A stretch of DNA of 33,678 bases, from positions 1 to 33,678 of IMG/VR virus record IMGVR_UViG_3300037458_001098; one strand, given 5' to 3'. The position numbers were made by a program, and so were the translations under genes. The notes under the pieces were generated by a model. That model saw only the letters and a program-made list of their open reading frames with translations. It did no database searches and was not told the origin of the DNA. Of the stretch, positions 14,309 through 33,678 are shown one piece after another. Position 1 is the stretch's first letter. Every line of letters starts with the position of its first letter. This DNA comes from a virus (Duplodnaviria; Caudoviricetes).

Positions 14309-15232
14309 CTATTTCTTTTTGTGATAGTTGGCGACTGCCTTAAATGCAAGCTGATTACAATACAAATTCTCTGTTGCAGAAGTTGCGCTTCCGCCGGCCA
14401 TGGATGATTTTACTTTTTTACTCCAAACTTTGACAAATCTTTTATCAGGCATGGAATACTCCGAGATAAAAACAGGCAAACTTAATCCTGCTGCCCAATC
14501 GTAAAATTGTTTGTGATCGAAGTTTTTGTTTTTGTCATATTCCCCTGTACCCAGGTACGGAATGTCACAATAGACGATGGAGTTTGGCAGCAAGTGAACT
14601 TTCCGGTAATCTAGATTGTAAAAGTTCAACCGCTCCAACTGCTGCAACCGCTCCAACTGCTGCAACCGCTCCAACTGCTGCAACTGCTGCAACTGCTCCA
14701 ACCGCTGCAACTCGCATCTTTTATTTTCTAGAATAACTAATCTATTTTTCAAAAATAAGCGACGGTCTTTTATTTTATATTCATCCCTAAATTTATCTAT
14801 TCCCAATATCTTTCTTGCTAACTGATCAAACTCATTAAAGACAATTGCATTGTGCAAACTTTTTTTTACTGGTTCAACGTCTACTCCGAAGAGGTAAGTT
14901 CTTCCATTGTTCCCAAATGACCAAAAGTTTTTTGTATAAAAACAAGAGTCCTTCTTCTCAATAAACTCTTCCCTGCTCACAAATTGCGGAAGAAATTGCT
15001 CATAACTATACTTGCCGGTAATCGCATCCTGTATAATCTCAGTCACGCCTTTCCTAATCTCATTGAAATGGAAGTGCTTATAATCCCTGCTCAGATGCTT
15101 GATCATGTAATGAGTAATTGCAAACCCTCCGCCAAATAAATCATAGAAGTTTTCTGCTGGAGGAAAGATATGACATAGCTCTTTTACTATTTTTGACTTT
15201 GATCCCATGTAGGGAATGCCGTAATTACTCAT
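14309..15232 (-). CDS. DNA adenine methyltransferase (D12/Dam class)
   Basis: PYMGSK, FYDLFGGG (SAM binding), VYCDIPY (catalytic motif IV), FDHKQF and FISEY. Confidence 0.93.
   Translation of the reverse strand: MSNYGIPYMGSKSKIVKELCHIFPPAENFYDLFGGGFAITHYMIKHLSRDYKHFHFNEIRKGVTEIIQDAITGKYSYEQFLPQFVSREEFIEKKDSCFYTKNFWSFGNNGRTYLFGVDVEPVKKSLHNAIVFNEFDQLARKILGIDKFRDEYKIKDRRLFLKNRLVILENKRCELQRLEQLQQLQQLERLQQLERLQQLERLNFYNLDYRKVHLLPNSIVYCDIPYLGTGEYDKNKNFDHKQFYDWAAGLSLPVFISEYSMPDKRFVKVWSKKVKSSMAGGSATSATENLYCNQLAFKAVANYHKKK
14627..14713. repeat. In-frame 9-bp tandem repeat (9 units plus a partial) inside the methylase
   Basis: CAAC(C/T)GCT(C/G) units encoding ELQRLEQLQQLQQLERLQQLERLQQLERL. Confidence 0.95.
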
Positions 15233-16135: not shown

Positions 16136-16186
16136 TATTTTTTAAAAAATAAAGAAATAGAAAATTACATTTGAAGAATTTAATTA

Positions 16187-16231
16187 TTCAAACAATTCAA
16201 ACAATTCAAACAATTCAAACAATTCAAACAA
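16187..16231. repeat. 5 x TTCAAACAA perfect tandem repeat
   Basis: Read directly. Non-coding and next to an AT-rich tract (16135-16186). Confidence 0.97.
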
Positions 16232-16233
16232 TA

Positions 16234-16280
16234 GTGTCAAAATTTTGACATTAACCAAAACGGTGTCAAAATTTTGACAC
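16234..16280. promoter_or_regulatory. Two copies of the perfect palindrome TGTCAAAATTTTGACA (operator-like)
   Basis: 16235-16250 and 16264-16279 (second extends to 18 bp, 16263-16280). 29-bp period. Each contains TTGACA on both strands. Confidence 0.75.
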
Positions 16281-16340
16281 TAGCTTTACTCTAGAAGCCA
16301 GAGGCATTGCTAATAGCATTACTTGAATGGAGTTGTTCTT

Positions 16341-20129: not shown

Positions 20130-20932
20130 GTTTCCTCCGCTAATTTTATGGCCCCAGTAAAATCTATGGCCGGTTTTTCCTCAGTTGACTGAGCGTCTCT
20201 TATGAACCATTCTTTGATTTGCTCCATCTTCTCGTCAGGATCAATCCTTTCTTTGTCGTACCCCAGTCCCCTTTCTACCCATCGACTAATTGCTGATCCA
20301 TAGTTCTGGTAAGTTTCTCCATTTTCAACGTGAACTCGGAATTTCTCTAAATGCCTAACCAATACGGACTCGCTCTTACATTTCTTAAGTAACTCCTTCT
20401 GCAGCTTGTGAGTTACCGTTGAAAAGGCAAACTGGTAAAATTCTGACTCATTGCTAGGTAAAAAATCATAAATAAGACCTTTTGGGTTTTTGGGCGGCTT
20501 GGCCCTATTACTTCTTTCATTCTTTTCATTCTTATGTTCTTGTATGTGTCCGATCGTTGTCCGATCGTTGTCCGATCGTTGTCCGATTCGTTGTTCGATT
20601 TTATCGTCAACTATCTGGTATTCTATCCAGTTTACGATGGTAATTACTCTATATTGTCGGTTAGACCGTTGTTCGATTTGATGTTCGATTTTCAGCTTTT
20701 TTAGAAATCTTTCGCACTTGCTCTCACTGATCTTACATTCCTTAGATAACGCTTTTCGCCCAGTGACAAATTGTCCCGGGGCCAGTGTTTCTCCGTGAGA
20801 ATGGTATCCGTCCTTATGATTTGCCTTTAGCAGCAAAACTGTCCAAAATCCTAATAACTCCATATCGTCAGCATATTTCCATTCAAGTAGCTTTCTGTGC
20901 AGCTTGATCCATCCCTCCAAAACGCCCTCCAT
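20114..20932 (-). CDS. Replication initiator (lambda O / replisome-organiser-like)
   Basis: GWIKLHRKLLEW...LLLKANH...GQFVTGRKALS...ITIVNW..YQ winged-helix N-terminus with internal iterons. Start may be TTG 20920 (GGAGGG RBS). Confidence 0.88.
   Translation of the reverse strand: MEGVLEGWIKLHRKLLEWKYADDMELLGFWTVLLLKANHKDGYHSHGETLAPGQFVTGRKALSKECKISESKCERFLKKLKIEHQIEQRSNRQYRVITIVNWIEYQIVDDKIEQRIGQRSDNDRTTIGHIQEHKNEKNERSNRAKPPKNPKGLIYDFLPSNESEFYQFAFSTVTHKLQKELLKKCKSESVLVRHLEKFRVHVENGETYQNYGSAISRWVERGLGYDKERIDPDEKMEQIKEWFIRDAQSTEEKPAIDFTGAIKLAEETWTKD
20547..20600. repeat. Iteron array, probable replication origin
   Basis: 3 perfect TGTCCGATCGT (20547-20579) plus 2 degenerate copies, next to a strand-asymmetric AT-rich tract (~20505-20545), inside the initiator gene as in lambda ori. 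Confidence 0.8.
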
Positions 20933-24071: not shown

Positions 24072-24911
24072 ATGAATGACTTAGTCAAAGAGTCCCATCC
24101 CTTATGGACTCCCGAACAAGTAGATCTTATCAAAAGTCAGATTTGCCAAAACATCACAACCGATGAATTAAAATTATTCATGCACGTTTGCAATCGGTCA
24201 GGACTTGATCCGTTTGCTCGACAAATCTATGCAGTTAAAAGATTTGACAGTCGGTCAGGTAAAGAAAAAATGACAATTCAAACCAGCATTGATGGGTTTC
24301 GAGTAATTGCCGAAAGATCTGGCAGGTATGCTGGCCAGTTAGGCCCATTTTGGTGTGGTTCTGACGGCAAATGGATTGACTGTTGGATCGATAAAGCATT
24401 TCCGGCGGCCGCTAAAGTTGGAGTGCTTCGACGTGACTTTAACGAACCTTTATGGGCCACTGCAAGATTATCTAGTTATGTGCAGACAGGTAAAAGTGGG
24501 CCAATCGGGCTGTGGGTAAAAATGCCGGAAGTAATGATTGCAAAATGTGCGGAAGCACTAGCGCTAAGAAAAGCATTTCCTCAAGAGCTTTCGGGACTTT
24601 ACTCAGAAGATGAAATGGCACAAGCGGAATCAACTGAATCAGGGAAATTACCTGCGCAGATAGTCCAGCCTCCACTTACCGCACAACCAGAACAATCAGA
24701 TGATCCAAAGAAAGAAGTCATGTCCAGAATAAATAGATTATCTGCTATCATCACAAAGGATTTTGACAAGGATCAGAAAAAAGAATGGGTAAAAAGATAT
24801 TTCAAGGTTGATAGCTACGGGGAGATTTCAAATTTTTCAATAGATATTCTTCGTCAAATTGTCAATAAACTGGAGAAAGACGCTCAAGATAAGAAAGATT
24901 TTCAAGATTGA
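24072..24911 (+). CDS. bet: Bet/RecT-family single-strand annealing protein
   Basis: ELKLFMHVC..SGLDPFARQIYAVKR...SIDGFRVIAERSG...W.KMPEVMIAKCAEALALRKAFP..LSGLY. Confidence 0.93.
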   Translation: MNDLVKESHPLWTPEQVDLIKSQICQNITTDELKLFMHVCNRSGLDPFARQIYAVKRFDSRSGKEKMTIQTSIDGFRVIAERSGRYAGQLGPFWCGSDGKWIDCWIDKAFPAAAKVGVLRRDFNEPLWATARLSSYVQTGKSGPIGLWVKMPEVMIAKCAEALALRKAFPQELSGLYSEDEMAQAESTESGKLPAQIVQPPLTAQPEQSDDPKKEVMSRINRLSAIITKDFDKDQKKEWVKRYFKVDSYGEISNFSIDILRQIVNKLEKDAQDKKDFQD

Positions 24912-26303: not shown

Positions 26304-26810
26304 TTAGATCCCTGTCCTACCAGGCCCAGTGATTGGGATTGCTGGCGCACTCTCTGGTAAATCAAGAGGATTAGTTTTCAGAATGTAATCATTGATAAAG
26401 TTTTCGATTTTGCTAATGTAAGTATCGAAACGAATTGAATCATGAGAAACAAGTCCAGTAGAGCGTCGGGCGGATTGAGAATTAACAATTTCTTGTTCGA
26501 TCAAATTAAACATTTGCAGGATAACGGCCAAATCGTCATTCTCTAACTGGCCCATGTCGGGCATAGATCCAAGATCAATTGTGAGAGGTGAGGTCTCGGG
26601 TAGGTCTAAAATCGGCTGTGATACCATCCAACTTTTAAATGCTTTGAGAGCTTCTAGGTAGGTAACCAATCTTTTAAGATCATGGCCATTTAACTCTGCC
26701 ACGTTTGATGAAATCGATTTTACAACTTCTTCTTTGAAACGTCGAAGTCTCCGAACTAAACTAGCAATGTCGTGATTTAAAACTTGTACTGCGCTCGAAT
26801 TTGTCGCCAT
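26304..26810 (-). CDS. Hypothetical all-helical protein with an internal tandem duplication
   Basis: Two ~70-aa repeats sharing N.D, E.V.S.S, HD..R..TY and LDLPE..P. AAGGAGG RBS. Confidence 0.8.
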   Translation of the reverse strand: MATNSSAVQVLNHDIASLVRRLRRFKEEVVKSISSNVAELNGHDLKRLVTYLEALKAFKSWMVSQPILDLPETSPLTIDLGSMPDMGQLENDDLAVILQMFNLIEQEIVNSQSARRSTGLVSHDSIRFDTYISKIENFINDYILKTNPLDLPESAPAIPITGPGRTGI

Positions 26811-27002: not shown

Positions 27003-27575
27003 CTAAACTAGCTTACGATATTTGTATGCCTCTAGAACCCTATGGCCTTTAGGGAAGTAAATTTCAAAGGCGTTGGGGTAACCGCCAATTGAAGCATTTA
27101 CTCTAGGCCTCATCACTTTGTTGTAAAATATCTCGTCCTTCAGGCCATATCGAACCATGAAGTAGTGGAGCAGTTTCGTGCTAGTGGGAATTTCGACGTT
27201 GCCATGATTCGTGACATACGTTGCCTTGTCACACTCTAAAGCTATGTCTAGATAGAGTAATGGGAGTAATGGAACGAACCACTCTCGCTTCATTCTCTGG
27301 AAGAAAATCCATCGCAGAGGATGGAGAGCGTGATGCCCTCGTGCTGGCAGCTTGCTTATCCCCTGTTTGTCAAAGGTAGCAAACCAGCAGAAAATACCAG
27401 TCCAATTGTCATGGGAAAAATTCTGTTGAGCTTTGCCCTCGTCGCCTCTATGTTCAAAATAAGATGATACAAATTGGTGAACTTGTATGATAGAAATTGG
27501 TGAATTAAGAAGCAAATCACGCTGACAGTCAAAAAGGATTTCATTCGTGGATAAATTAACTTTGGAAAAAGACAT
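27003..27575 (-). CDS. Hypothetical protein (190 aa; SHDN motif)
   Basis: Start MSFSKVNLSTNE at 27575 is supported by protein-level conservation of residues 7-24 in a second copy. The upstream extension in the track is the antisense shadow of the + ORF. Confidence 0.7.
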   Translation of the reverse strand: MSFSKVNLSTNEILFDCQRDLLLNSPISIIQVHQFVSSYFEHRGDEGKAQQNFSHDNWTGIFCWFATFDKQGISKLPARGHHALHPLRWIFFQRMKREWFVPLLPLLYLDIALECDKATYVTNHGNVEIPTSTKLLHYFMVRYGLKDEIFYNKVMRPRVNASIGGYPNAFEIYFPKGHRVLEAYKYRKLV

Positions 27576-27876
27576 TGTGCCTGCCCTTAATGAAGCTATG
27601 AGAACAATTCTTATCGCCATTGGCAAGGAAGTCAATGAAAACGAAAATCTCCCATATGATTCGGTGGGCATTTCGCCAGAGGGCGACGTTTTAGCGATAG
27701 GGTTTCAGCAAAATAGTAGTGCGTCCGTTTTAGCGATGATTGCCAAGGATAGTGAATCGCTTGATTTTTCCTTTAATGAACAAGTCGGAGCGTTTGAGGC
27801 ACTAACCTTTTTCATGGAAATTATTGAGAAAGTACCCTGCCGATGCAACATTATCCCGAATTTCAAGATCCAATAA
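27547..27876 (+). CDS. Acidic hypothetical protein, antisense to the late operon
   Basis: GTG start with AAGGA RBS (alternative ATG 27598). Fills a gap where no minus-strand gene is evident. Confidence 0.55.
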   Translation: MDKLTLEKDIVPALNEAMRTILIAIGKEVNENENLPYDSVGISPEGDVLAIGFQQNSSASVLAMIAKDSESLDFSFNEQVGAFEALTFFMEIIEKVPCRCNIIPNFKIQ

Positions 27877-29011
27877 CCTGAACATGGTACTCAGCTATTC
27901 CCTTTAACTTCGCAATCCAGTTTACCCAAAGCCAATCGCCGGTACTGACGTTTTGTGATCCGTCGCTTTTGATGACGGCCGCTGCTTCTACGAATTGAAC
28001 CCCTGCCTCTGTTATTGTTGCTGGCGTGGTTAATATTGAAATGTCGCCAGTTCCTGCGTTCAAATGAGCTAAACTTCCTTTTCTAATATCAAGAGTGGCG
28101 GTTGATCCGGTAGTTCCAACTGATAGCTTAGTTAAGTTTACAGTGGTGATTGTGAAACTGGCCGGACATTTAAACAGAAAGCGGCCGTTTGCCCAAGTCT
28201 GTGCTTTTTTGAATATTAAGTTAAGCAAGATTGCTTTTGGCGAAGTTTCTGAATCACCTCCACCGTTTATTACTAATGAATGTGAGTGTACAAATGTGTG
28301 GTTATGTCCTGAGCCGACTGAAGATAGTTGAGCATTTGCCCCGGAAGTGTGGTAGTCGCTGGGAATAGTATAAATGTTAGTTCCACCTGCAGGCGAGCCA
28401 GAAAAAACTCTGGAATGTCCAATTCCCACCCATTGCCCAGACGTTTTCCACGATCCACTGCTTGCTGCTAGTGTTGTTGCTGCTCCATCTATGTCGTAAG
28501 ACTGGTCGGCCGTTGTTGCGTTTTCTTTTTTATACCACTGATGGCTATGGTAACCACTGGTCGAGGTATTTATCAATCCACTCAAACTAGGCGTCACGCC
28601 TGTAAATTGATTCACTGGCAGTTTAGTCTGATCTTCCGTAGTGATTACTGTACTAGTAAAAGGCCCATATGTTAGCGCCATTCTCAAAAATCTGCTTCTA
28701 GCGTTTGGTGTTGCTCTTGAATATCCTCCACCATCTACCCATGTGCCTGTTCCGTCTGCTCTGATCCATGTCGCCGACATACCTTGAATATAGGCCTGAT
28801 CTTCTGTTTCCCATGTCCAGATAGCGCTACCAACTGGTATTTCAGAGAAACGGATAATGTCATTAAATACTACCGTTTGATTCACTCCACCAGCAAGCTG
28901 AGATATTCTCGCTTCGTGATCGTCTAGATTATTTTTGATCCTCGTCATTAAACTTTCTTTGACTGGTTTTCCTGCTTGCACTTCCGCTAAATTGATAGGT
29001 GTATATGCCAC
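27863..29011 (-). CDS. Tail fibre / collar-like protein
   Basis: N-terminal anchor-type helix (AGKPVKESLMTRIKNNLDDHEARI), collar-like PVGSAI...WIRADG...PNARSRFLR, HSH/HNH repeats and GDSETSPK. Confidence 0.75.
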   Translation of the reverse strand: MAYTPINLAEVQAGKPVKESLMTRIKNNLDDHEARISQLAGGVNQTVVFNDIIRFSEIPVGSAIWTWETEDQAYIQGMSATWIRADGTGTWVDGGGYSRATPNARSRFLRMALTYGPFTSTVITTEDQTKLPVNQFTGVTPSLSGLINTSTSGYHSHQWYKKENATTADQSYDIDGAATTLAASSGSWKTSGQWVGIGHSRVFSGSPAGGTNIYTIPSDYHTSGANAQLSSVGSGHNHTFVHSHSLVINGGGDSETSPKAILLNLIFKKAQTWANGRFLFKCPASFTITTVNLTKLSVGTTGSTATLDIRKGSLAHLNAGTGDISILTTPATITEAGVQFVEAAAVIKSDGSQNVSTGDWLWVNWIAKLKGIAEYHVQVIGS

Positions 29012-29022
29012 AAAACTCTCCT

Positions 29023-31599
29023 CTAAAATATTAAGTTCTTGCCCTTGCTTAGTCCGTCAGTCTCAGTGACGCCCAAATCGTCCGTGATGAAACTATAATC
29101 TAGAATATCATCGTCGTTCGAAACTGAATACTCGCCTGCTGTATCTGGAGTAATGATGGCCCTTCGTGCGAACGTGTTACCCAGATCAGCTAGCACAAGA
29201 CCTATTTCCTCACCTGACTTTTTAAGTTCTATCACTAGCATAAATCTAGAATTATCGGTTACGTCTAGGAATGTTCTAGGTAGATTTTTAAATGTCACTT
29301 TAACAACGTCCAGTAGGTTTAAATTATAGTACCTGTTATCCACTCGGCACTGCAAAACAGTATTTAGGTACTGCGACATTAATAATTTTCTATTTGCTAC
29401 GGCCCTAGCATCGTCCAGATTCAAAAAGCTAGATTTCATCTCGTAAGTAGCAGAGCTATCAAGTAGAATATTAAAATCATCTGCCCGGAAAAATACTTGT
29501 TTCGAATCAGTATTTACGGCCGCATCTAATTGCCTGTGGTCGTAGCTAACGTTTACTTCTCGATAGAGGGAATTACGTTCAATTTTTGATCCCCAACTAA
29601 TAACGTCGTAGTCAGTGAGGTAAATTGGCATGACCTCGAAGTCTCTCGACAGATCAAATATTTTATAGCTGAATTTAAAATCATTTTTTACAAACAAAGT
29701 ACCACTTAAGCTCTCATTAACTTCATTGAGGAGAGTTAAAAGTTTAGGCATATTCTTTTGTGCTGGTGAAATTGGGGCAACGAGGGAAACAATTTGTCTA
29801 TTTTCACTGGCCAGTAGATCGAAGCTATTATCAATATTACCGCCAAATCCAGCCTCTAATAACTGCTGCTTGATAAACTGCATTCCTGTATTAATCCAAA
29901 CACCACTTGATAGGCCATTTTCCGTCTCGCCAATCACGTCTGCTGACAAATAAACATCATTAGTAATGGGAGTAATTTTTATCAACCGAATACCAGGCGA
30001 CGAAACTCCCACGGCCAGATTAGTTACTAAACGGATTCTTGTAGACGTTGTGTCTGACGTTACGCTTGCCACTTCGTATTTTTGACCACCAAATATCAAG
30101 TAATCTCTTGGTGAAACCAATTCAAGCAATAGGTCATCGATGGCGCTTCTTGTGACGACATTAGTTCCCGATGTGCCATTCCATGTTGCGCCTAAATCGA
30201 TTGTAACGGGATTTCTGCCCACCGATTCAAATTGCCTATTAACTGTTACATAGCATCCATGATCGTCACTGTTTTCTATAAGGTAATTGTTTCTATCGAG
30301 GGGAATTTCTTTCGATAAGAAAAACATTTTGCTAATTGGTGGCCGTATGACTTGGTTAGTCGTTGCAAGGGCAATTGGTACTGACTGATTCAAAGAAATA
30401 TTATTAGCAAAAATTGAAGTTATCGTTCTAGTGTAGTAGACTGAGTCAATTCGCACTTCTACAATGTCGCCAACTAGTAAATCTCTAACACTGTCCACTT
30501 CGTAAATAGTCGCCGCCGGTTGAAGAATAATCGTACAAATTGTTTGGCGCAGAGGCCTCGCGGAAACATTATGTACCCGATTAAATATAGGACTAATGCT
30601 TTTATAAACGCACTCACTCGATCCAGTTTCATTTGACGCTGCGTTTTCCTCAACTTTGAGAGAAGTGTTGCTGATTACCTCAACCACTAAATGCTCGACG
30701 CCTTTATTAATGATTAATGTGTCGCCGGAGCTAATCTCACTTAGATAGTTCGTGCTGGTACCGGTTACAGTGTTACCTCCAAGCGTGATTGAGGAGGTAC
30801 CTGACAAGGTGTACCTGTCAGATTCAAGAGCAGAAATATTTACCAATCGTAGGCCATTTACCCTGCCCCATAGACGAGATTTGTAGATCCCAAGATTCCC
30901 TGTCACAAGGCCTGTTACGTTGTAGCTAGTGGCCGTGAGTGTTTCAGATTGGATATTCCTGTTTAGTAGATTTAGGTTGTTGCTGATTTTAAAATTGATC
31001 GTGTCGTTATCCCAGTCTTTTCCCGATACCACTCCATCGTAAATTAGCATTGCTTCTGTTTCGGGTAAATCTCTGGCCCATGAATATAGTTGGCATTTTT
31101 GCCCCTCGAAAATTAGATTAGCGAATGAATCGTTAAAGTATCCGTCTAAATTTTGCAAGCGAAATGCCCCTGCGCCAATGATTGCTACGCCTGAGCTTCC
31201 TTCTACTTTTGAATTGAAGGCGCTGCCTAGAATTAGTCGGTTAATATACTCAAATACTATCCCGTCGTCGGTTAAATCCCAGGATAACTCACAGGGAGAA
31301 GTTGAAAATAAATGGCGAGTGGTGGCGACGTACTCGTTTGAGGTAATTGAATCATCATTGACGTAAAGTTTTTTGGCAGAAATGTCGTAATAAAATTGGG
31401 AAGTGGAGAGGCCTACCATGGTAGAGGAAGCGGTTAGTGCTGTGTAGTTTTTGTGTAATTCTGTTACGATATCTGGGATAACTGCACTGTAAATGTCACC
31501 GCCTTCGTCAGTCCACCCAAACACAAATCGCTTCGAGTTTAAGTGGCATAACGTGATTTTCTCGCTCGATCGTCGCAATCCAAAGTTACCATAACTCAT
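29023..31599 (-). CDS. Large tail tip / baseplate hub-like protein (858 aa)
   Basis: LQNLDGYF...IYDGVV...INFKI hub-like N-terminus, beta-rich middle, C-terminal LNLLDVVKV. Located in the tail region. Confidence 0.65.
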   Translation of the reverse strand: MSYGNFGLRRSSEKITLCHLNSKRFVFGWTDEGGDIYSAVIPDIVTELHKNYTALTASSTMVGLSTSQFYYDISAKKLYVNDDSITSNEYVATTRHLFSTSPCELSWDLTDDGIVFEYINRLILGSAFNSKVEGSSGVAIIGAGAFRLQNLDGYFNDSFANLIFEGQKCQLYSWARDLPETEAMLIYDGVVSGKDWDNDTINFKISNNLNLLNRNIQSETLTATSYNVTGLVTGNLGIYKSRLWGRVNGLRLVNISALESDRYTLSGTSSITLGGNTVTGTSTNYLSEISSGDTLIINKGVEHLVVEVISNTSLKVEENAASNETGSSECVYKSISPIFNRVHNVSARPLRQTICTIILQPAATIYEVDSVRDLLVGDIVEVRIDSVYYTRTITSIFANNISLNQSVPIALATTNQVIRPPISKMFFLSKEIPLDRNNYLIENSDDHGCYVTVNRQFESVGRNPVTIDLGATWNGTSGTNVVTRSAIDDLLLELVSPRDYLIFGGQKYEVASVTSDTTSTRIRLVTNLAVGVSSPGIRLIKITPITNDVYLSADVIGETENGLSSGVWINTGMQFIKQQLLEAGFGGNIDNSFDLLASENRQIVSLVAPISPAQKNMPKLLTLLNEVNESLSGTLFVKNDFKFSYKIFDLSRDFEVMPIYLTDYDVISWGSKIERNSLYREVNVSYDHRQLDAAVNTDSKQVFFRADDFNILLDSSATYEMKSSFLNLDDARAVANRKLLMSQYLNTVLQCRVDNRYYNLNLLDVVKVTFKNLPRTFLDVTDNSRFMLVIELKKSGEEIGLVLADLGNTFARRAIITPDTAGEYSVSNDDDILDYSFITDDLGVTETDGLSKGKNLIF

Positions 31600-31673
31600 T
31601 CAGTCGCCCCCGGCGCATTAAGCAGTAAATCACGTTGACAGTCAAAAAGAATCTCGTTGGTGGAGAGGTTCAT
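31596..31673 (-). CDS. 25-aa mini-ORF MNLSTNEILFDCQRDLLLNAPGATE (copy of the N-terminus of 27003..27575)
   Basis: Starts 1 nt after the fibre stop and its TGA overlaps the hub ATG. 18 residues identical to those encoded at 27504-27557. Confidence 0.65.
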   Translation of the reverse strand: MNLSTNEILFDCQRDLLLNAPGATE

Positions 31674-31674
31674 G

Positions 31675-33678
31675 CTAGAACTCCGCCGATGCTGTCCACT
31701 TCGCAGCGTCGAAGTAGCCGTTAGCATTATGTGTCCCTGCAAGTACAAAACTTTCGGCCGTTACGCCTGTAGCTCCTGCCGCATAGAAAGAATCCGTTTG
31801 TGCCCCACCGTAAACGCCTGCGTTAAAGTTGGATGTAACCCTGTTAGCTGTTCCTGCTACATATGAATTTATCGTAATAGTTGTGGGCGCAACTCTCATG
31901 GTAACAGGAAACGGGATGTAACTAAATGTTCTGTACGCCCCACCTCCGTCTGCCGTCGGCTGCACCAGCGCAAAAGACTCACCTTTTACATAATACCTCT
32001 GCGCCATCGCCAGTTCCCCGGCGATATTTCCACCAGCTAAGGAAAATGGTGTTGCCACCGAACCGATTTCTAGCTTCACTTCCGCAATGTCGAAAGTGCC
32101 GGATTGTTGACCGAGGGACGCGGTTCGGGCGTTGAAGTCGGAGCCTGCGTCGAACCAGAAATCTAAGCTAAAGCGTGTTGTATGGATTCCGTCTGTCCCC
32201 AGTGTTTTACCAATAATACTTGGTATGGCAACCGTAATCACTTTTTTTTGCCAAGTTGTAGTCAAAGCAATCTTCTGTGCCCCAATTCCGCTTACTGATG
32301 AGGAGGGGGAACCACCAGTCCCAAAAACTTGAAAAAATTCGACTGCGATATTTTTCGAGGCATCAGCTTTCGCCCAAAACGATAGCGTGACTGTCTTTCC
32401 TGCGGTGATTGCAACATTTTCAAAGTTGTGTATCTTCTGACAATTGTTTGTAACACCCGCCACGGTGCTAACAATAGTCCTTGAGTAGTAAGGAGCGTTG
32501 AAAAAAACTCTCTCTGTGTCGGTTGATGTTTGCCTTGAGTGTGTTTTAGTAGTACCTCCGTGAATATTACTCCACCTATCATCACTACCATACCCACTCG
32601 TCGTCTGCGATGTTCCCCTCTGCCACAAATCAAACCCACCGTTGATAATCAAATTAGGATTCGATACCGCACTCACCTTCTGCAATACCGTCTCCTCAAG
32701 GCCTATCGTCTGATTGCCTGTGTTGAGCTTCGCGAGGGAGAAACGTTGAGAGTTAAACGAACCAATTATGGTATTATTGTCAGAGTCTATATTGTATTGT
32801 CGTGTGTAGATAGCAATCACGTCCCCTTTGACGAAATGATGAGCGGCCATAGACAAATCAGGCGTTGCGTTTTGCCCTGGATTGTTAAAATTAGTTCCAT
32901 CAAAGCATTGATAAAGTATAGAGCCATTTTTCCAAATTTGAATATTCCCTCTGTAAACATCGTGATCGGGGTCGCTGTTGTATCTAACTTGCGCCGAAAG
33001 AGAGTAATACCCACTCTCAGGGATAGTTAGCTGACTATTAGCTGCGTCCCAGATATTCGCAGGATTTTTTACCACCGCCCAGTTAGTGACTTTTGTGTCA
33101 ACTTCATGCGGAATACTCTGCGTACTCCCATTCCCCTCCAGAACCAGAACCACGTCCCTACCAGGCATCGTCTCGCTCATCACGACGTTGCTGCTCCAGC
33201 CGGCGATGGGGGGGGTGATGATAGTTCCCCTTATTGTAGAGCCTGCCAAGACGTCTTGACCGGAAAGTATATACGCTTGGTTGATCTTATACATGCCTAT
33301 TCCATTAAAGCTGGCAGTCGCAGCAAGGACAACTCCGCCGAAGGCAGAAATTGTATTGTACGACGTTCCATAGCTTATTAATGTCCCCGGAGATATTGAA
33401 TGTCCGTTAGGCAGCGAGAAGGTAACTGCATCGGTACCGATACCATTCGTTCCGTCTTTAACAAAACTGATAGTTATTTCCATTGAATCCCCAACTCTCC
33501 GCCAGGCGCCTGCTAGAGTAGTCGCGCCACCGGCCCCCAAGCCACTAACCGTCGGCGTGTACGCTACCCAGTCCGTGATGGGGGAGCCGATCGCCATGCC
33601 ACTATCGGTTATTTTTGCCAGTAATTTAATAGTGTAAGCATCCGCATTTGTAGTAGCACAATGAAATATTAAACGGTA
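31675..33678 (-). CDS. Mosaic tail fibre / receptor-binding protein (5'-truncated by the window edge)
   Basis: Frame is open to the edge (YRLIFHCATTNADAYTIK...). Modules: TDWVAYTPT/WRRVGD, C1q-like TIPESGYY, CBM-like NLIINGGFDLWQRG, and ELAMAQRYY...FPVTMRVAPT...ASAEF. Confidence 0.85.
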   Translation of the reverse strand, partial: YRLIFHCATTNADAYTIKLLAKITDSGMAIGSPITDWVAYTPTVSGLGAGGATTLAGAWRRVGDSMEITISFVKDGTNGIGTDAVTFSLPNGHSISPGTLISYGTSYNTISAFGGVVLAATASFNGIGMYKINQAYILSGQDVLAGSTIRGTIITPPIAGWSSNVVMSETMPGRDVVLVLEGNGSTQSIPHEVDTKVTNWAVVKNPANIWDAANSQLTIPESGYYSLSAQVRYNSDPDHDVYRGNIQIWKNGSILYQCFDGTNFNNPGQNATPDLSMAAHHFVKGDVIAIYTRQYNIDSDNNTIIGSFNSQRFSLAKLNTGNQTIGLEETVLQKVSAVSNPNLIINGGFDLWQRGTSQTTSGYGSDDRWSNIHGGTTKTHSRQTSTDTERVFFNAPYYSRTIVSTVAGVTNNCQKIHNFENVAITAGKTVTLSFWAKADASKNIAVEFFQVFGTGGSPSSSVSGIGAQKIALTTTWQKKVITVAIPSIIGKTLGTDGIHTTRFSLDFWFDAGSDFNARTASLGQQSGTFDIAEVKLEIGSVATPFSLAGGNIAGELAMAQRYYVKGESFALVQPTADGGGAYRTFSYIPFPVTMRVAPTTITINSYVAGTANRVTSNFNAGVYGGAQTDSFYAAGATGVTAESFVLAGTHNANGYFDAAKWTASAEF

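Follow-up and report, generated by a model that had tools for sequence, protein, structure and literature searches.

A short copy of a gene start before the baseplate hub gene of a siphophage-like virus is best read as a recombination remnant, likely reused in tail fibre exchange

The fibre-hub junction and its mini-ORF

The window, as we call the whole stretch of DNA analysed here, is a 33,678-nt siphophage-like fragment with terminase, major head, tape measure, RecT and fibre genes. The tail fibre gene (31675..33678, minus strand) has lost its 5′ end at the contig end and forms a variable cassette ending in ...KWTASAEF and a stop codon. Its product matches PHROG 4492 tail fiber (E 1.5e-60), and tail fiber matches were found in 66 phage records. 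Fibre residues 1-231 and 1-95 match the pre-hub fibres of two distant loci (L010 and L018), and the pre-hub fibre of a third (L009) also matches. Within 32647-33604 the fibre gene has two co-existing alleles in each of the runs X1 and X2, seen as assembly bubbles with replaced segments of 125 and ~364 nt.

The next gene (29023..31599, minus strand) encodes the 858-aa siphophage baseplate hub, or tail-tip protein. Its model is of low confidence (pLDDT 55.5) and matches the T5 and DT57C tail-tip chains (E ~1e-7); these matches and the conserved position of the gene in 17 distant loci identify the predicted product as the hub. It is followed by a 382-aa post-hub tail protein gene (27863..29011, minus strand) with tblastn matches in 12 of the 17 distant loci. 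Homologues of this protein have ~170 aa; the extra middle part of the window version contains HxH motifs, which we take to be reminiscent of a fibre tip. A RecT single-strand annealing recombinase is encoded on the plus strand at 24072..24911 (PF03837, E 2.8e-34; PHROG 2780). With the hub and the fibre of the window as single queries, no viral contig was matched.

Between fibre and hub lies a mini-ORF (31596..31673, minus strand) of 25 codons, 21 from the 5′ end of a 190-aa gene and four that constitute the hub ribosome-binding site; we refer to it as the stub. Read from 31673 to 31596 it translates as MNLSTNEILFDCQRDLLLNAPGATE and a stop, an allele of the type MNLS...NAP. The original prediction described it as exactly bridging the fibre stop and the hub start, and this is the case: a single nucleotide separates its ATG from the stop of the fibre gene (TAG-C-ATG), and at the other end its TGA shares bases with the hub ATG. 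Codon comparison likewise confirmed the predicted silent duplication. The 54-nt core common to stub and intact gene (31617..31670, minus strand), whose first 29 nt equal those of a second stub described below, and the segment 27504-27557, at an offset of 4113 nt, code for an identical string of 18 residues; the two differ at 10 nucleotides, distributed over nine codons. Nine of these differences are at third positions and one is a first-position Leu change, all silent. When 10 changes were placed at random 300,000 times, under uniform and transition-biased models, the result was never all silent. The 18 residues are also the longest exact six-frame peptide repeat more than 300 nt apart in the window; codon shuffles gave 6-8 aa (20/20). 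The GC-richer third positions noted in the original prediction amount to 8/18 against 6/18 codons and carry no evidential weight.

A Shine-Dalgarno-like GGAG (31681..31684, minus strand) is located 7 nt before the stub ATG (duplex −6.1 kcal/mol) and probably derives from the donor gene, as its native start signal. Since the ATG is preceded by this site, the stub peptide is probably made in the window phage. A second Shine-Dalgarno-like site, that of the hub (31607..31611, minus strand), reads GGGGG in the window and AGGAG in locus L003 and stands 7 nt before the hub ATG, with duplex energies of −8.6 and −6.6 kcal/mol; in both phages the last four stub codons are this site and its spacer. Read-through or frameshift from upstream genes into the stub was discarded on inspection by eye. 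We found no description of this element within the limited literature searched.

Elsewhere in the window, three repeat arrays were observed. A 9-nt tandem repeat at 14609-14720 lies in a Dam-like methylase gene and encodes (LE/LQ)(Q/R)-type repeats (LEQLQQLQQLERL...), and 11-nt iteron-like repeats at 20547-20703 lie within a DnaD-like initiator gene. At 16186-16282 an intergenic 9-nt tandem array is followed by a perfect 19-bp inverted repeat with near-palindromic arms, a possible operator or origin.

The intact 190-aa gene and an overlooked antisense gene

The intact gene, encoding MSFSKVNLSTNE..., occupies 27003..27575 on the minus strand, with the shared core at 27557-27504, and belongs to an all-helical phage family without a name. 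The family has 161 clusters and the all-helical model of the window protein reaches pLDDT 90, so the gene is real. Its conserved motifs, NFSHDN, P..GHH and TSGK, all lie outside the part present in the stub; within that part an N-terminal N and the I/L-F positions are conserved, and the model has a helix at residues 12-23. Neither Pfam nor PHROG yielded a match for the protein or for 41 of 42 homologues, the one match among the homologues being a cadherin false positive. There was no PDB sequence match and no Foldseek PDB match, and the BFVD matches were only to uncharacterised phage proteins (TM ~0.63). The best VIA hits were assorted helical toroids that did not reach significance (best Z 6.4); the protein thus weakly resembles half an alpha/alpha toroid. 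The NgoFVII B3-like fold is a beta fold, and an atlas match to such domains was discarded for low recognition and for the helical model. With the 190-aa gene as query, no match was obtained in GTDB or GenBank phages. Family members in L001, L004 and L027 sit among non-structural genes.

Head to head with the 190-aa gene, with a 29-nt overlap, lies an antisense gene of 109 aa (27547..27876, plus strand), a conserved gene in a cluster of four members that the original prediction overlooked; it has no atlas match. Its GTG start (27547) and its Shine-Dalgarno site (AAGGA, 27534-27538) fall inside the second repeat copy, and locus L002 retains the same site and frame. Predicted pairing at this site is −5.4 kcal/mol in the cis copy against −0.9 kcal/mol at the homologous site of the stub. 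Because the stub site has almost no such pairing, some of the silent differences need no selection on the peptide. Wherever the 109-aa gene is present, the start of the 190-aa gene is extended (MSFSKV/MSSSRV). A public gene caller cut the 190-aa gene down to 96 aa (P0005). A 168-aa gene at 26304-26810 (minus strand) forms a one-member cluster, has no cover in run X4 and is possibly an accessory insert in the window lineage.

Two gene orders share the stub sequence

The stub sequence occurs in two arrangements. In arrangement A, present in the window, in L003 and in one contig of run X4, the stub stands in front of the hub; the window has its intact copy of the gene beyond the hub and the 382-aa gene. 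In arrangement B, present in P0001, P0008, P0009 and another X4 contig, this start is continued as the full gene. The sequence is placed between genes in arrangement A and is a coding 5′ end in arrangement B. According to the original prediction, relatives in which the fibre is directly followed by a full-length MNLSTNE gene, and never by a separate short copy, would indicate a recombination remnant. We found the direct junction, and we also found that separate stubs are kept (L003 and X4). In P0001, P0008, P0009 and one lake-metagenome contig the fibre end leads straight into a full-length MNLSTNE...NAP gene. The called extensions of P0001, P0008 and P0009 end in SSSM, the residues that the window fibre end gives in that frame, and continue with NLSTNE...NAPIS through 185 residues; P0007 begins at the Met of SSSM. 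Equal 5,594-nt contigs suggest that P0008 and P0009 adjoin homologues of the 54- and 93-aa genes of the window.

The stub matches the full-length B-type allele and not the cis copy 4.1 kb away: NAP, as in the stub, occurs in five of eight close full-length proteins, while the cis copy reads NSP. Among close homologues the conserved NLSTNE is preceded by six different starts. The B-type genes are identical to the cis copy at only 9-10 of 20 residues in block 21-40, just past the repeat; in the C-terminal half those of P0001 and P0008 agree with it at 18-20 of 20 residues. Divergence past the repeat combined with the C-terminal match indicates that the B alleles are a separate lineage that recombines with that of the window rather than a fresh deletion.

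Two X4 contigs carry the two continuations. In the depth-62 contig 31611 is joined to 27442; an adjacent loose end encodes residues specific to P0001/P0007 (translated by hand); we read this joint as coming from another organism, as joints at low likeness often derive from other organisms or repeats. The depth-30 contig leads from the stub into a hub that is ~14% diverged (132/921 letters). Both contigs begin at 31665, and with contig overlaps of 30 nt this common start implies that they would carry the same exact 30-mer.

These junctions bear on one rival explanation, a deletion switch in which recombination between the two copies removes the hub, 382-aa and 109-aa genes, with arrangement B as the product. 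In its favour, the two copies form a direct repeat with an offset of 4113 nt and 83% likeness, the X4 joint skips exactly the hub-to-109-aa stretch, the depth-62 form is without the hub at 80% or more, and P0001 has the C-terminus of the cis gene. Against this, the B-type genes diverge right after the repeat as a separate allele does, the hub is a conserved tail gene, and the runs X1-X3, which contain the window sequence and of which X1 and X2 may be its source, have only the window arrangement and no such joint, with the proviso that rare variants drop from contigs. We regard such a switch as very improbable.

A second stub in front of a related hub

In L003 the fibre end is of another type; after it come a 75-aa gene and then NLSTNEILFDCQRDLLLSAPGATK and a stop, abutting the hub ATGA. 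This stub has no in-frame ATG, GTG or TTG, so the start codon is kept in one of the two readable stubs. Its residues KQNLS match, at the protein level, the start of the full-length P0010 protein (MKQNLS). Upstream of the stubs the window and L003 are unrelated (19/60 nt alike). Within the stubs the first 29 nt are identical (29/30 nt), while the hubs differ at 83 of 525 nt (15.8%). An equal identical run occurs once in the 525 nt of hub (1/166 in-frame windows; Fisher P 0.058), and the stub identity is thus suggestive, though not significant alone. Over 24 codons the two stubs differ by seven silent and two replacement nucleotides, a silent excess over the neutral expectation (P 0.001-0.011) that counts against the preferred reading given below, as does a stop codon kept in frame with the ATGA of the hub in both. 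The hub Shine-Dalgarno site contains two of the silent changes; read after the fact, the seven would comprise five donor-inherited differences and these two. The two replacements, at core codons 18 and 24 (small numbers), are both in the 3′ part, which may be where intact donors could least overwrite the stub.

The identity of the 29 nt between window and L003 would also fit a regulatory site at the DNA or RNA level (promoter, protein-binding site or structure), a reading that has hardly any probability since folding of three sequences gave nothing beyond shuffles (z +0.7 to +1.5, 3/3), none of 18 promoter-like sites and no terminator in the window scan lies over the stub, and the pattern of change relative to the cis copy follows codons.

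Distant hub loci

We compared 17 distant hub loci, three pairs of which are near-duplicates. Tail gene order is kept around the hub, with a variable slot before the hub. Two homologous small genes (E 8e-46 to 3e-22) lie between fibre and hub in L010 (4338-5614) and L014 (8671-10000) and after the hub in L016 (13905-15319); that this block stands on either side of the hub shows that block relocation around the hub occurs in this phage family. By reading, these genes are lysis-like and are candidate lysis genes. The 190-aa gene or a stub was found in 0 of the 17 loci, and an HMM scan for stubs found none in these loci and in L001 and L004. A degenerate stub pattern had no hits in viral contigs or in GTDB genomes, and there were no proteins of 30-103 aa with the stub motif, a range below which a 25-mer falls. 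These scans may have excluded records that are nearly identical. Internal 9-residue repeats were absent from 19 of 21 loci, the others having a Gly-rich repeat (L020) and one 9-mer (L023).

Probable origin and reuse of the stub

The feature is real and is best read as a recombination remnant, likely reused or, with much lower probability, inert. Our preferred explanation, at a probability of about 0.6, is that the stub combines the 5′ end of the 190-aa gene with the ribosome-binding site of the hub and acts as a downstream homology patch when fibre cassettes recombine between phage lineages that differ in gene order. Its reuse seems likely from the two cassette types and the common assembly-graph node. 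In a first step, a block headed by the 190-aa gene, originally in front of the hub, would have been relocated to behind it; codon 21 would have been joined without homology to the hub Shine-Dalgarno site, leaving the stub. In a second step, RecT-type annealing would cross over in the stub and import a B-type fibre end together with the first codons, a crossover that is possible because the intact gene of the B phages still begins with the stub sequence. Fibre imports of this kind would refresh the 5′ part of the stub with codons selected in intact genes. In a third step, the silent differences would arise from selection in intact genes and from the constraint that the antisense gene places on the cis copy. 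RecT is a candidate catalyst of the fibre swaps, and the stub peptide, if made in the window phage, would be a by-product. Of the options offered in the original prediction, a scar of fibre-cassette import and a recombination repeat both agree with the data. Its statement that selection acted on the peptide is right as to selection, which most likely acted in the intact donor genes.

Another account, which we consider unlikely, is a one-off scar, left by a single non-homologous event and kept only for the hub ribosome-binding site, perhaps with coupling, and not reused. It agrees with the hub Shine-Dalgarno site within the stub tail of both phages, with the retained in-frame ATGA overlap and with a 29-nt identity that is not significant by itself. 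It does not easily give the common X4 node, nor two stubs that follow unrelated fibre cassettes and whose starts each match a different full-length allele, and the ~50 nt before the Shine-Dalgarno site would have been free to decay while the hubs diverged by 15.8%. There is no need to suppose that the stub was kept for translational coupling, given that the hub gene is provided with a Shine-Dalgarno site of its own and that L003 lacks an upstream start.

The remaining option of the original prediction, a functional micro-peptide, does not fit, and a peptide function of the stub is improbable. Under this reading the 25-mer, carrying the first helix of the 190-aa protein, would titrate that protein or a partner. 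The window ATG and the GGAG 7 nt before it, the helix at residues 12-23 and the conserved N-terminal positions agree with it, as does the silent excess between the two stubs, though donor inheritance and change in the Shine-Dalgarno site would yield such an excess as well. The L003 stub is without an in-frame start, both replacement changes lie in the 3′ part, the most conserved family motifs are outside the stub, stubs are absent from the 17 distant loci and from two pattern scans, and no 30-103-aa protein has the motif, though a 25-mer is below that range. We give as little credence to a combined form, in which the stub of ATG-keeping lineages would be a selected 25-residue helix mimic that tunes the 190-aa protein during tail assembly or lysis and also a fibre-exchange adapter; if true, one 75-nt element would be peptide gene, ribosome-binding site and swap site.

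If the stub is reused as a homology patch, phages that have rearranged their tail operon need not leave the common pool of fibre exchange: 60 nt retained from a relocated gene leave the former neighbourhood accessible to RecT. Where intact donors circulate, the silent-only divergence of a short duplicate does not argue for a micro-peptide. The 190-aa family, with its many clusters, confident model and lack of a Pfam or PHROG name, is a separate target.

Comparison with known systems

Gene-restoring duplications at attP are known from e14 and phage 21 in icd, and resemble the present case in that one end of a gene is duplicated with synonymous recoding. Here the segment between the copies consists of the conserved hub and post-hub genes and is not an integrated element, and no integrase was found among the 41 proteins scanned from a fragmentary record. 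An attP-type duplication was discarded because the enclosed segment is a conserved hub module. Fibre-switching systems include Gin/Cin inversion and diversity-generating retroelements, which share a repeat adjoining a variable tail fibre. The window repeats, unlike theirs, are direct and outside the fibre, with changes that are silent and not adenine-specific: an A is present at two of the 10 differing sites in either copy and at no more than four of 10 on the other strand. No invertase was found, and no reverse transcriptase among the same 41 proteins. An invertible cassette was discarded since the repeat is direct (family D3) and not inverted, and a diversity-generating retroelement since the differences are not confined to template adenines.

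Closer is the relaxed recombination of Red-beta, RecT and Erf. As far as the available text of the two sources goes, Rad52-like recombinases (Red, RecT) recombine ~22%-diverged DNA (PMC2327257, PMC3945230), with homology regions of hundreds of bp in PMC3945230. RecT, diverged partners and the mosaic 190-aa alleles and fibre are alike here; the stub homology differs in being only ~60 nt. In recombineering, ~60 bp of homology suffices.

Mosaicism at boundary sequences has lambdoid examples. The stub appears to work like a boundary sequence for homologous module exchange; crossovers within it would fit the X4 node and the 29-nt run (P 0.058). Unrelated DNA on the module side, two fibre types, two continuations (hub and full gene) and RecT were all seen, and the element is a clear example of known phage mosaicism. 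The boundary-sequence model is set out in PMC3233612, and the likeness lies in a short common edge sequence, unrelated upstream cassettes and an annealing recombinase in the phage. The present boundary differs in bridging two gene orders, since one lineage has it as the 5′ coding part of an intact gene and the other lineage as a stub.
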